A stretch of DNA of 64,000 bases, taken from contig CAVSHW010000039.1 in assembly GCA_963727695.1 (NCBI GenBank), positions 7,770 to 71,769 on the forward strand, read 5' to 3'. The notes under the pieces are model-generated. The model was not told the DNA's origin and searched no databases. It saw only the letters and a list, made by a program, of their open reading frames with translations. How positions within the stretch are numbered: the stretch's first letter is position 1; the number at the start of each line of letters is the position of its first letter. The stretch comes from an uncultured Methylomirabilota bacterium (lineage in GTDB: Bacteria; Methylomirabilota; Methylomirabilia; Methylomirabilales; 2-02-FULL-66-22). This document shows, piece by piece, positions 10,794 to 64,000 of this stretch. The translations under genes were made by a program, and so were the position numbers.

Positions 10794-10984
10794 CAGGATG
10801 CTGAAAGACTCACTTTTCGGCAGGCTGCTCAAAAGGGCCCAGATGCTAGGCGGCCCGCGAAGGGCGGGGTACCCACCGCGGGTGGGTCCAGGCGTACTTC
10901 CGGTACGCCGCAGCGAGTGCCCGAGCAAGCGGGGTACCCAGCCGCCGGCTGGGTCCCCGCAGATGGGCCCTTTTCAGCAGCCTG
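10794..10984 (+). repeat. Nested-palindrome repeat family 1, copy A
   Basis: CAGGCTGCTCAAAAGGGCCCAGATGC...GGCGTACttccgGTACGCCGCAGCGAGTGC...GCAGATGGGCCCTTTTCAGCAGCCTG. A degenerate outer motif lies at 10794-10810. The right end abuts the glgP stop codon. Confidence 0.9.
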
Positions 10985-13516
<2,532 letters not shown>

Positions 13517-19727: not shown

Positions 19728-19900
19728 CAGCAGGCTGCTGAAAAACCCGATTTCGCCCAGGCTGCTCAAAAAGGTCCAGATGCGAGGCGGCGCGCGATGG
19801 GCGGGGTACCCACCAGAGGTGGGTCCAGGCGTACACTGGGTACGCCGCAGCGAGTGCCCAAGCGCGACAACGCTGCAGATGGGCCTTTTTCAGCGGCCTG
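19728..19900 (+). repeat. Nested-palindrome repeat family 1, copy B
   Basis: Outer CAGCAGGCTGCTGAAAAACC, inner CAGGCTGCTCAAAAAGGTCCAGATGC, apical GGCGTACactggGTACGCC, right arm GCAGATGGGCCTTTTTCAGCGGCCTG. Confidence 0.9.
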
Positions 19901-23519: not shown

Positions 23520-23689
23520 CAGGCTGCTGAAAAAGGCCCATCTGCTGCGTTGGCTTGCTTAGGCACTCGTTGCGGCGCACCCCAGTACGCCTCACTCGGC
23601 CTCGGGTACCCATCCAACAGGATGGGTGCGCCGCCTTGCATCTGGACCTTTTTGAGCAGCCTGAGCAAAGCGATCTATCAGCAGCCTGC
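23520..23689 (-). repeat. Nested-palindrome repeat family 1, copy C (inverted orientation)
   Basis: The reverse complement has the same architecture as B and D, including the outer motif. Apical hairpin GGCGTACtggggTGCGCC. Confidence 0.9.
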
Positions 23690-23938
23690 TATATGCCTAT
23701 CCCGCCGTCGATGGAGATGCTCGCGCCATTCATGAAGGCGGCCTCGTCTGAGGCCGCGAACAGGATGGCGGCGGCGATCTCCGATCCGTGCCCAGCCGGC
23801 CCATGGGCTGGCGCGCGATGAAGTCCGCCCTGGATTTCTCGGGATCGGCAAAGGCCTGGATCCGCCGCCCCCGTGCTTTCGCATCTCCGGAATCGCGTGT
23901 TTCGAGACCAGGAAGGGCCCTTTCAGGTTGACCGCCAT
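23689..23938 (-). pseudogene. Remnant of an SDR oxidoreductase
   Basis: Three frames on the minus strand carry NLKGPFLVSKHAIPEMRKHGGG, then IQAFADPEKSRADFIARQPMGRLGT, then EIAAAILFAASDEAAFMNGASISIDGGIGI-stop. The N-terminus and catalytic middle are missing. Confidence 0.65.
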
Positions 23939-23950
23939 CGTCCGGCCGAT

Positions 23951-24763
23951 CTATCGCACCGCGACCACGTCCCCCGTGTCGAAGCCGGGGCGGATGAAGG
24001 CGCGGGCGTCGGGGAAAGTCGCCTCGATGTCCCGGCGCAGTCGGCTGAGGGTGGCCAACAGGGGCAGGATCTGGTCCTCCTCGTCGGGCAACTGACGGAG
24101 CATCTCTGACCACGCGGCCAACGACCGATCGATGCCGATCAGGGCCACTTTGGCCGAACCGTCGGCATCACTACGGTCAAGCCCGATGTCGATCTCGTCG
24201 TCGCGTCGCAGAGAACCAACCGCCCGCACGATCTTGACGGCGATCTGGTGCTGGTACCACCGGATGACCTCCGTTGCTTCCTGCAGGCGTAGTACGTCTC
24301 CTTCCGGGTCCGCCCCGGGGAGCCCCATCCGGTCCAGCCGCTCTAGCTCCTCGCCGCGCTCCTGAAAGCGGGGATCGGCCTGCTCGAACCAGGCCTCGAC
24401 GGCCGCGCGGTACTCGCCGGCGGCGATGGCGCAGGGATGGCTCCAGGCCTCGTCATGCCACCGCGCCATCTCCCGTGCCGCCTCCGCATCCAGCGGGGGA
24501 AGCACGATGCCGCGCTCCTCCAGCATCTCATCGAGCATCTCGTGCGCCTCGCGGAAGATCTCCCCCAGGCGGTCCCAGAAGGCCCGATTGTTGATGTCGC
24601 GCGAGGCCGGATCCCCGCAGTCCTCCTCCTGCTCCGTCGCGTACACGAGACAGCGCGATGTCAGCGGGCACCGCTCGCACCACCGGTCACAATAGTTGTA
24701 CACACCGGAGATGATCTGCGGATCTCCCACCAGCTCCTTCAGCCTGCGTCGCCTTGCGGCCAT
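23951..24763 (-). CDS. Hypothetical protein with N-terminal CxxxCxxCxxxxxC motif
   Basis: Track ORF 23951..24796. Preferred start MAARRRRL at 24763 (GAGAGGGGAG upstream); alternative start at 24796. VYNYCDRWCERCPLTSRC, then an acidic helical protein. Confidence 0.7.
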   Translation of the reverse strand: MAARRRRLKELVGDPQIISGVYNYCDRWCERCPLTSRCLVYATEQEEDCGDPASRDINNRAFWDRLGEIFREAHEMLDEMLEERGIVLPPLDAEAAREMARWHDEAWSHPCAIAAGEYRAAVEAWFEQADPRFQERGEELERLDRMGLPGADPEGDVLRLQEATEVIRWYQHQIAVKIVRAVGSLRRDDEIDIGLDRSDADGSAKVALIGIDRSLAAWSEMLRQLPDEEDQILPLLATLSRLRRDIEATFPDARAFIRPGFDTGDVVAVR

Positions 24764-24796
24764 GACGTCTCCCCTCTCGGCTACTTGGCTTCCCAT

Positions 24797-24949
24797 AGCA
24801 GGCTGCTGAAAAACCTGTTTCGCCCAGGCTGCTCAAAAAGGTCCAGATGCAAGGCGGAACGCGCAGAGCCGAGTGAGGCGTACTCCAGGTACGCCGCAAC
24901 GAGTGCTCGAGTGTTCCAACGCCGCAGATGGGCCTTTTTCAGCAGCCTG
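24797..24949 (+). repeat. Nested-palindrome repeat family 1, copy D
   Basis: AGCAGGCTGCTGAAAAACC...CAGGCTGCTCAAAAAGGTCCAGATGC...GGCGTACtccagGTACGCC...GCAGATGGGCCTTTTTCAGCAGCCTG. Abuts the arfB stop. Confidence 0.9.
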
Positions 24950-25375
24950 TTAGTCGTCGATCACCCCGGGCGGCTTTCTGGTCTGTTTTGCCTGCCCGTG
25001 CCGGCGTTTCGTCTCCAGCCGGCGCACTCTCGACGCCCTCGATGGCTTGGTCTCCCTCCGCGGCTTCGGCTTCTCGACGGCCTTGCGAACCAGCAGCACG
25101 AGCCGGTCGATCGCATCCCGGCGGTTCGCCTCTTGCGTCCGGAACCGCCTGGCCTCGATGGAGAGCATCCCGTCCTGTCCGACTCGTCTGCCCGCCAGAC
25201 CCAGCAGCCGCGCACGAACCTCTTCCGGCAGGGAGGGGCAAGCACGGACGTCGAACCGCAGGCGCACCGCCGTCGACACCTTGTTGACGTTCTGCCCCCC
25301 GGGACCGGAAGCCCGGAGGAACTCGAAGCGGAGCTCCCCTTCATCTATGGCGATGCTGTCGTTGATCTGGATCAT
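24950..25375 (-). CDS. arfB: Alternative ribosome-rescue factor ArfB (peptidyl-tRNA hydrolase, GGQ)
   Basis: FLRASGPGGQNVNKVSTAVRLRFD plus a basic C-terminal tail. 141 aa. Confidence 0.9.
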   Translation of the reverse strand: MIQINDSIAIDEGELRFEFLRASGPGGQNVNKVSTAVRLRFDVRACPSLPEEVRARLLGLAGRRVGQDGMLSIEARRFRTQEANRRDAIDRLVLLVRKAVEKPKPRRETKPSRASRVRRLETKRRHGQAKQTRKPPGVIDD

Positions 25376-62277: not shown

Positions 62278-62402
62278 CAGGCTGCTCAAAATGGCCCAGA
62301 TGCAAGGCGGAACGCGAAGGGCCGAGCGAGGCGTACTCCAGGTACGCCGCAGCGAGTGCTCAAGCGGTCCAACGCCGCAGATGGGCCGTTTTCAGCAGCC
62401 TG
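62278..62402 (+). repeat. Nested-palindrome repeat family 1, copy E (shortest)
   Basis: CAGGCTGCTCAAAATGGCCCAGATGC...GGCGTACtccagGTACGCC...GCAGATGGGCCGTTTTCAGCAGCCTG. 1 nt from the permease stop. Confidence 0.9.
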
Positions 62403-62403
62403 C

Positions 62404-63387
62404 TCAACTGGTCTCGCTGGCCAGGGCCTTCCGGGCCCACTGATCCACGAGCACGGCGACGATGATCAAGGCTCCCAGGACCACCCCCTGCCACACGGAC
62501 TCGATGCCCAGCAGGTTCATGCCGTTCTGCACGATGGTCATGATGAGCGCCCCGATCAGCGTGCCCACGATCCCGCCCTCTCCCCCGAAGAGGCTGGTGC
62601 CGCCAATCACCACGGCGGCAATCGCGGGCAGGAGCATGTTGGCGCCGATCCCCGCCTCCGACGCATTGAGGCGCGCCACGTAAACCAGCCCGGCGGCCGC
62701 GGCCAGCAGTCCGCTCAGGGTGTAGGCCAGGATGAGTGTCTGATCTTTCTTCACGCCCGAGAGGCGGGCCGCCTCTTGGTTGGCGCCCACCGCATAGAGC
62801 GCCCGGCCAAAGGTGGTGTGCCGCAGGAGCAGATAGGCGGGGATCCAGAGCACCGCCATGAGGATGATCGGCATGGGGACGCCCAGGAGGTTTCCCACGC
62901 CCAGGAAACGGAAGTCGTCCTTGAACCCGTAGATCACCTGCCCCTTGAGCAGGACCACCGAGAACCCGAAGGCCACCCACATCATGCCGTAGGTGGCGAT
63001 GAAGGGGGGCAGCTTCACCACGGCCACCATCAGCCCGTTCAGGAACCCCAGCCCCGCGCCCACCACCAGGCCGGCGGCCAGCGCCAGCGGGAGGGGGACG
63101 CCGGTCTTGATCGCCACGGCGGCGATGACGCTGGAGAAGGTCAGCACCGCGCCGATGGAAAGGTCGATGCCGGCTGTCAGGATGACAATGGTCTCGCCGA
63201 TGCCCAGGATAACCAGGAGGCTGGCCACGCGCAGGACATTCAGGGCGTTGGTACCGGTGAAAAAGACCGGCGAGGCCGCCGTCAGGACGATGCACAGCAG
63301 ACCCAGCACGAAGAGCCGGGAACCGGTATACAGGATGCGGGGGTCTAGGCGCCACCCGCGGGGCTTGACGTCTGCGGCGCTGGTCAC
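62404..63387 (-). CDS. Sugar ABC transporter permease (RbsC type)
   Basis: GTG at 63387 overlaps the upstream stop (GTGA). NALNVLRVASLLVILGIGETIVILTAGIDLS. Confidence 0.9.
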   Translation of the reverse strand: MTSAADVKPRGWRLDPRILYTGSRLFVLGLLCIVLTAASPVFFTGTNALNVLRVASLLVILGIGETIVILTAGIDLSIGAVLTFSSVIAAVAIKTGVPLPLALAAGLVVGAGLGFLNGLMVAVVKLPPFIATYGMMWVAFGFSVVLLKGQVIYGFKDDFRFLGVGNLLGVPMPIILMAVLWIPAYLLLRHTTFGRALYAVGANQEAARLSGVKKDQTLILAYTLSGLLAAAAGLVYVARLNASEAGIGANMLLPAIAAVVIGGTSLFGGEGGIVGTLIGALIMTIVQNGMNLLGIESVWQGVVLGALIIVAVLVDQWARKALASETS

Positions 63388-64000
63388 TGGATGACCCCCC
63401 TCTGCTTGAGCAAGACGTCGAAGATGATGGCCGCGATGATGACCAGGCCGATGAGCGCCGGCTGCCACATCGCCCCCACGCCGATGACGTTGAGCCCGTT
63501 GCGCAGCACCGAGATGAGCAGCACGCCCAGCACCGTCCCGCCGAGGGTCCCGTTGCCCTTCTCGAAGCTGGTCCCGCCCAGGATCGTCGCCGCGATGGCG
63601 TCGAACTCCCAGCCGTTGCCCACGATGGGGTCGGCGGCGCGCAGACGCGCGGCCATGATGACCCCCCCGAGAGCGGCCAGGGCCCCGGCGGCGACGTAGG
63701 TCAGGAACTTCCACCAGGCGGTGTTGACCCCGGAGAGCCGAGCGCCCGCCTCGTTCCCGCCGATGGCGATGATGTACCGGCCGAAGTCGGTCTGGTAGAG
63801 CGCGATCCAGCCTAGGATGAAGACCAGCACGGCAATCACCGTCGGCATGGGCAGGATGCCGAGGGATCCGCCGCCCAGGAAGATGAAGGCGGGCTCGCCG
63901 GAATAGATGGCCCCTTGCCGGGTCAAGACCAGCGCCAGTCCCGCGGCAATGCCCATCATGCCCAAGGTCGCGATGAAGGGGGGCAGCTTGCCCGCGGTGA
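63384..64000 (-). CDS. Sugar ABC transporter permease, partial (N-terminus beyond window end)
   Basis: The frame stays open past the track's TTG start (63965): ...TAGKLPPFIATLGMMGIAAG... C-terminus ...VIGVGAMWQPALIGLVIIAAIIFD. Confidence 0.85.
   Translation of the reverse strand, partial: TAGKLPPFIATLGMMGIAAGLALVLTRQGAIYSGEPAFIFLGGGSLGILPMPTVIAVLVFILGWIALYQTDFGRYIIAIGGNEAGARLSGVNTAWWKFLTYVAAGALAALGGVIMAARLRAADPIVGNGWEFDAIAATILGGTSFEKGNGTLGGTVLGVLLISVLRNGLNVIGVGAMWQPALIGLVIIAAIIFDVLLKQRGVIQ

Follow-up and report, generated by a model that had tools for sequence, protein, structure and literature searches.

Why should one and the same end of a non-coding repeat lie directly against the stop codons of genes that are transcribed towards it? 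The question is raised by a stretch of 64,000 nucleotides (the window), contig C39:7770-71769 of G000, a 4.18-Mb Methylomirabilota MAG of 65 contigs with 64.8% GC. In the window, the pattern TTTTTCAGCAGCCTG has 14 matches at ≤2 mismatches, against 0.06 expected, and these fall into five elements (copies A to E), each of which is a long imperfect hairpin. The preliminary description of this DNA noted that the right end of the repeat adjoins the stop codons of inward-reading genes and proposed either a role at the 3' end of the transcripts or an insertion mechanism aimed at TTA, CTA and TCA sequences at gene ends.

Copy A (10794..10984, + strand) is a long form with two nested GGGTACCC mini-hairpins and CTAA on each flank; its right end is entered by glgP (10985..13516, - strand), which encodes an 843-aa protein with 85% identity to a 'Candidatus Methylomirabilia' MAG protein and whose stop, CTA 10985-10987, is fused to the end of the copy at 10984 with a gap of 0 nt. 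Copy B (19731..19900, +), another long form, is directly followed by TTAG after its right end at 19900, so that an out-of-frame TTA sits at the junction; the stop of the inward-reading called gene lies 14 nt from that end. Copy C (23520..23688, -) is inverted, with the right (hairpin) end at 23520, cCTAGg just before it and the outer IS-end module at 23662-23688; its outer end at 23688 adjoins CTA 23689-23691 of an SDR remnant. Copy D (24799..24949, +) is composed of the outer IS-end module (24799-24824) and the 125-nt hairpin core (24825-24949), and arfB (24950..25375, -; 141 aa, GGQ motif) reads into its right end, the stop TTA 24950-24952 being fused to position 24949 (0 nt); this copy is missing at the orthologous site of the relative G013, which has TTAG there instead. 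Copy E (62278..62402, +) comprises a 125-nt core, preceded by a decayed outer module, and the TCA stop (62404-62406) of an ABC permease gene (62404..63714, -; 436 aa) sits 1 nt from its end at 62402. These junctions had been described as such beforehand, and the coordinates bear the description out. Between copies C and D, in the interval bounded by their outer ends, an intact orphan ORF (23951-24796, -) encodes 281 aa with a CDRWCERCP cysteine motif; it lies next to the SDR remnant.

The copies are 125-200 nt in size and have no coding capacity. The long form, ~152 nt, consists of a 27-nt IS-end module (CAGGMTGCTGAAAAAcccgctttcgcc) and a 125-nt imperfect hairpin made up, in this order, of an inner arm CAGGCTGCTCAAAAAGGTCCAGATGC, a variable interior and a right arm GCAGATGGGCCTTTTTCAGCAGCCTG; in most copies, a 27-nt module CAGGCTGCTGAAAAAcccgctttcgcc is found left of the hairpin. 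The 15-nt terminal inverted repeat recurs at both hairpin termini, and the element thus holds three copies of it. The 125-nt short form arises in place by a 27-nt deletion between the direct outer and inner arm copies, as seen in orthologous pair 3. The mRNA-sense strand folds less stably than the opposite one (-72 vs -79 kcal/mol; the opposite strand is better in 115 of 122 copies), with C·A mismatches on it where the consensus has T·G wobbles. On both strands, T5 comes directly after the upper stem, which is flanked by an A-run and a T-run, as in two-way terminators. A simple consensus terminator scan makes no call on the element, the loop of which is longer than the limit of the scan; four copies searched against the Rfam 15 covariance models had no match at E ≤ 1, and inspection of the consensus by eye revealed no promoter-like hexamers.

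Two kinds of smaller hairpin accompany the element. Palindromic modules of ~20-26 nt (GGGTACCCACC-N4-GGTGGGTCC and variants) are nested in either hairpin half, in the window at 10855-10885 and 10925-10960 (copy A), 19800-19825 (copy B) and 23600-23625 (copy C). They occupy differing positions in orthologous copies of G000 and G013, which implies gain and loss faster than point substitution, and they may represent a second, tiny mobile or templated hairpin. Arm-only mini-derivatives, such as CAGGCTGCTCAAAAAGCAGCCTG, occur in G000 at C10:101402-101446, C23:36343-36381, C37:20658 and C65:8739; these are internal deletions of the hairpin.

Distribution of the repeat relative to stop codons

An nhmmer profile built from the five window copies and run on G000 yielded 125 full copies, and the partial matches in this genome are truncated or internally deleted copies rather than IS ends. 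Gene calls with a codon-usage model trained on long ORFs gave 3169 genes in G000, which end in TGA (52%), TAG (32.5%) or TAA (15.5%). The stop of an inward-reading gene lies at a distance of exactly 0 from the right end in 67 of 122 copies and from the left end in 5 of 122; after removal of segmental duplicates, the right end is at distance 0 in 65 of 117 copies, against 5 for the left end (binomial p = 2e-14). Random intergenic placement would give 0.2 distance-0 copies, and random orientation over all non-coding YTAR sites 12.5 (p = 3e-34). The neighbouring gene reads inward at 108 of 122 right ends and 40 of 122 left ends, and outward at 14 and 81 of 122, respectively. The docking of the same repeat end on stop codons, first noticed in the window, therefore holds genome-wide by both distance and orientation (67 vs 5).

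The right end also prevails over the left end at stop codons in G005, a six-contig genome of the same genus (25 vs 0), and in G022, which belongs to another family of the order (23 vs 1); in five more distant genomes, the bias is less marked, at 6 vs 3 (Fisher p = 0.016 relative to the others). Of the genomes sampled from the phylum, 89 of 201 contain the 125-nt core, which occurs in 23 of 61 genera and retains 76-83% identity in another family.

The identity of the touched stop codons differs sharply from that of the genome as a whole: TAG 45, TAA 18 and TGA 4 (67/27/6%) compared with 32/16/52% (chi-square p = 3e-13). The inclusion of TCA, that is, TGA, in the pattern accordingly does not stand, given that TGA makes up just 4 of the 67 touched stops but terminates 52% of genes. 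That the touched stops are rich in TAG and TAA, even though half of the genes end in TGA, indicates that docking is a matter of target sequence rather than of stop-codon function. A further 14 of the 122 copies are entered by the ORF itself, which continues for 11 nt into the right arm and ends at a TGA within it (arm positions 9-11, …NCA GGC TGC TGA).

Parent insertion sequence, target and choice of stop codons

The IS5 group and its YTAR targets are well established. A search with NCBIfam model NF033581 (transpos_IS5_4, cut-off 140 bits) detected 12 intact copies of such a transposase in G020, a member of the same genus, and others in G049 and G047 (another family), G028 and G019. The transposases score 213-281 bits, and intact frames of 365-434 aa are present in G020, G049, G047 and G028. 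Each is enclosed in an element of 1296-1340 bp with ends CAGGMTGCGGAAAAA, which are identical to the arm of the repeat, CAGGCTGCTGAAAAA, in 13-14 of 15 positions, and 16 of 18 of these IS elements are flanked by perfect 4-bp direct repeats (CTAG 13, TTAG 2, CTAA 1). The resemblance of the outer 27-nt module to the IRR end of the IS extends beyond the terminal repeat (CAGGCTGCGGAAAAACCCGCTTCGAAG vs CAGGCTGCTGAAAAACCCGCTTTCGCC), and a decayed IS copy in G014 begins with CTAG followed by CAGGATGCTGAAAAA. The shared ends, the IS5_4 transposase and the 4-bp duplications identify the element as an IS5-family MITE: at the level of sequence comparison, the repeat is shown to be a non-autonomous MITE of an IS5-family insertion sequence. 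No parent IS was found in G000, G005 or G013, and no long TIR pairs were found in G000 or the other loci examined. The other DDE_Tnp_1 insertion sequences of G000, G013, G014 and G022 were rejected as partners by their differing ends, and Harbinger-type DDE_Tnp_4 transposases had no match in five genomes.

The sequences next to the right end are CTAG (33), TTAG (21), CTAC (14), CTAA (11), CCAG (8) and TCAG (4), with a YTA flank in 88 of 123 copies. When the joined flanks of 40 copies were searched in the closest relative, G013 (~94% identical), about 10 of the 40 sites proved empty, and at the clean ones (b14, b17, b20, b5, which is copy D, and b22/30) the insert exceeds the element by 4 nt. 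The empty alleles carry a single CTAG, CTAC or TTAG that already serves the same gene as its stop codon; the stops thus pre-exist and are duplicated by the element. In the reverse search, none among 36 G013 insertions was empty in G000. The family is young in G022 (median nearest-neighbour identity of 97%), where young copies are flanked by perfect direct repeats TTAG/TTAG (3), TTGG/TTGG and CTAG/CTAG, those of TTAG and TTGG being non-palindromic. Across all copies, a test of identity between the left and right flanks had no power (8 identical pairs vs 6.6 expected), because older left repeats have decayed while their role as stop codons holds the right ones. Duplication of TA only, as by IS630-type elements, is disfavoured: the base that precedes TA is the one found in the empty allele, and it co-varies between the flanks. 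Where target repeats have decayed, CCAG or CTGG is often found (8 right flanks, 5+3 left flanks); speculatively, erosion of CTAG by a T-to-C bias or by very-short-patch-type repair would give this change.

The proposal of an insertion mechanism aimed at TTA- or CTA-type sequences at gene ends was therefore right in substance, as the 4-bp YTAR duplication and the stop codons of the empty alleles attest; TCA is not a target, and the symmetric target alone does not account for the one-end rule. Judging from these sequences, the DDE transposase of the parent IS would cut a 4-bp YTAR site (CTAG in preference to TTAG or CTAA) and duplicate it. At 65% GC, YTAR tetranucleotides are rare and the harmless ones are largely TAG or TAA stops, whereas insertions inside genes are lost. 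At a stop codon, the duplication rebuilds the stop, which leaves the protein intact and the end of the element at distance 0, so that target choice together with purifying selection accounts for the docking on stops. Outside the elements, G000 contains ~4700 YTAR sites, of which 494 are on TAG or TAA stops, 2067 in genes and 2145 in sequence called intergenic, and stops are about two- to three-fold enriched for insertions over the other non-coding YTAR sites. It is plausible that this residual enrichment stems from fewer insertions being tolerated in promoters and leader regions. Roughly one CTAG stop codon in nine bears a hairpin of ~150 nt (33 occupied right-flank CTAG sites vs 255 free CTAG stops).

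Two other accounts of the association with stop codons can be weighed against these data. One is single-strand (HUH) transposition of the IS200/IS605, REP-RAYT or IS91 type, always 3' of TAG or TAA and without a true duplication. Oriented insertion beside a tetranucleotide is a hallmark of such systems, the left-flank tetranucleotide is often unlike the right one, GTAG-tagged REPs are reported to supply TAG stops (PMC3733652), and G000 encodes 3 IS200-like and 5 RAYT-like genes. However, the IS200 copies end in unrelated hairpins of their own and the RAYT-like genes in ACGTCCCC repeats, a DDE IS5-family parent with the same ends as the MITE and perfect 4-bp duplications has been found, and non-palindromic direct repeats flank the young MITE copies. 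These observations largely refute single-strand transposition and make it highly improbable. The other account, under which the element donates the stop codon to genes that run into it, describes the 14 of 122 ORFs that end at the right-arm TGA. At the 67 distance-0 copies, in contrast, the stop lies outside the conserved element and varies (TAG or TAA, with any preceding base), and it is already present in the empty allele of G013. We consider donated stops improbable as the rule: the explanation is refuted in general and true for a minority of copies.

The five RAYT-like genes of G000 are paralogous Y1 genes of 330-360 aa (C26:703-1719, C20:106784-107767, C37:10240-11292, C64:33411-34436 and C9:6729-7820), several of which are bracketed by short inverted repeats ending in ACGTCCCC, like CGTC-tagged REPs, that are unrelated to the MITE. 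The three IS200-like elements (C16:101175-101609, C30:72414-72848 and C30:123416-123889), two of which are identical over 643 bp, each have their own terminal hairpins. A RAYT/Y1 partner of the MITE was accordingly rejected, the ends of both groups being unrelated to it. An IS91/Y2 transposase had no match in five genomes, which is weak evidence of absence, the search being equally blank in its control genomes.

Orientation relative to the upstream gene

The orientation of the element tracks that of the gene in 108 of 122 copies (89%). It tracks GC skew in 67%, no better than the gene baseline of 69%, and the replication strand was rejected as the cause. The ratio of right to left ends on stop codons is 18:2 where the next gene lies within 20 nt, 19:0 where it is 21-150 nt away, 11:0 where it is further than 150 nt, and about 17:2-3 between convergent genes. 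A bias that is equal in all contexts fits ill with a simple story of polarity or of shielding of the downstream RBS, and protection of the downstream RBS was discarded given that the bias is independent of the distance to the next gene. Among tandem copies, the ratio is 64:3 for the stop-adjacent ones vs 11:5 for the others (p = 0.006).

Both termini of the MITE share their first 15 nt, so the stop and the subsequent codons are identical in either orientation. The target and the parent IS are symmetric as well, and we infer that the one-sided orientation was imposed by selection on copies already inserted. The likeliest cause of the one-end rule, in our judgement and with a chance somewhat above even, is orientation-dependent selection on the transcript. 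Such selection would act via the transcript of the upstream gene or via translation termination: either the reverse orientation would do damage, or the forward one would bring a benefit, for instance by providing a 3' hairpin whose terminating effect is not too strong. On one reading, the tolerated orientation is the one that gives the less absolute hairpin or terminator. The mRNA-sense strand being the weaker fold speaks against a role of RNA structure, and the stronger bias at stop-adjacent copies (64:3 vs 11:5) would also fit a mechanistic link to the target.

Such a link would exist if the orientation were built into transposition, that is, if the unlike ends of the MITE, a 27-nt true IS end and a hairpin arm that mimics the TIR, captured the target asymmetrically. 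The hairpin end might, for example, be placed towards the GC-rich coding side, and insertions at stops would then be oriented from the start. The tighter bias at stop-touching than at other tandem copies is as expected under this mechanism, and so are the persistence of the bias in convergent contexts, the GC content at 28 copies away from stops (67% in the right flank vs 57% in the left, p = 0.002) and the right end lying at the stop in all 6 of 6 recent (polymorphic) stop insertions. However, the YTAR target and its 4-bp duplication are symmetric, full-length copies of the parent IS dock on stops with either end (2 vs 1), and the bias is weaker in distant genomes (6:3). Gene-oriented insertion by DDE transposases of the IS5 type has no precedent known to us. 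On balance, orientation imposed by transposition itself appears unlikely, although it is the main rival to selection.

Conservation of the element in place bears on a further alternative. Across 12 orthologous pairs of G000 and G013 copies, the two 26-nt arms are 98.4% identical, a value that rests on draft MAG assemblies in which repeat collapse could homogenise the arms; the coding flank is 95.1% identical, the intergenic (left) flank 89.5%, the interior of the element 87.6% and the outer module 84.3%. The stem pairs show 129 compensatory changes across 98 distinct copies. An orientation bias of 13:1 or stronger, combined with the identity of the arms, is what either a 3'-UTR role or orientation-dependent selection would predict. 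The hairpin might be a 3'-UTR or DNA element recruited by the host (a terminator, mRNA stabiliser or protein-binding site) and kept at gene ends, with mobility being secondary. The arms that are more conserved between orthologues than the neighbouring coding sequence, the compensatory changes that keep the stem paired, the breadth of the core across genomes and genera of the phylum and the terminator-like A-run and T-run around the upper stem all point in this direction. Against it, there is no Rfam match, no call by the terminator scan and a weaker fold of the transcribed strand; the copy number, the presence/absence differences and the target duplications are those of an active transposon; and conservation of the arms is also expected of transposase-binding ends, besides being open to inflation by the assembly. 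Recruitment with secondary mobility is thus possible but not likely. A stronger version is more doubtful still: the 125-nt hairpin as a directional 3'-end module of Methylomirabilota, set in one orientation after TAG and TAA stops, with arms nearly invariant at each locus, that affects either translation termination or the upstream message at its 3' end and is only spread by the IS5 transposase.

As a whole, the best explanation of the data, and one we regard as probable, is an IS5-family MITE that inserts at YTAR sites coinciding with stop codons and acquires its one-sided orientation by selection after insertion.

Relation to known systems and significance

The repeat shares with the IS5-group (NF033581) insertion sequences and their MITEs the 15-nt terminal repeats found in the 1.3-kb IS copies, the 4-bp YTAR duplication, the non-coding sequence and the presence/absence polymorphism between close relatives. 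It departs from them in three respects: the 125-nt hairpin has no resemblance to the subterminal sequence of the parent IS (the first 60 nt of each end were compared), the terminal repeat is present in three copies, and the orientation is biased 13:1 or more strongly relative to the gene whose stop the element occupies. REP/REPIN-RAYT systems (PMC3733652; Nunvar et al. 2010, PMC2817692) are likewise hairpin repeats of high abundance, located 3' of genes between ORFs that run in the same direction or converge, and long-lived in a lineage, and their terminal xTAG is often the TAG stop of the flanking ORF; in particular, the GTAG tail of GTAG-tagged REPs supplies such a stop (Di Nocera et al. 2013, PMC3733652). 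In contrast to these repeats, the MITE has arms that are not short self-palindromes, a true 4-bp target duplication and a DDE IS5 transposase rather than a Y1 (RAYT) enzyme as its partner, and it is ACGTCCCC-type repeats, not the MITE, that flank the RAYT-like genes. The ERIC/IRU and Correia (NEMIS) elements are MITEs of ~125-150 nt that form long RNA hairpins, use TA-containing targets and are co-transcribed with their neighbours, although they belong to a different transposase lineage and differ in target and duplication lengths. Orientation-dependent effects on mRNA have been described for both, but, to our knowledge, no comparable docking of one end on stop codons has been reported for them.

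The kind of element is therefore already known, namely, an IS5 MITE, whereas the orientation rule has no explanation from symmetric insertion of the IS5 type. With this, a conspicuous trait of these uncultured bacteria of soil and groundwater has an explanation, and some of their genes now terminate within the element. Where a genome is GC-rich, transposon targets centred on TA make stop codons safe landing pads. The one-orientation rule and the conservation of the arms in place go beyond the chemistry of transposition and offer a testable case of hosts filtering or recruiting mobile hairpins.
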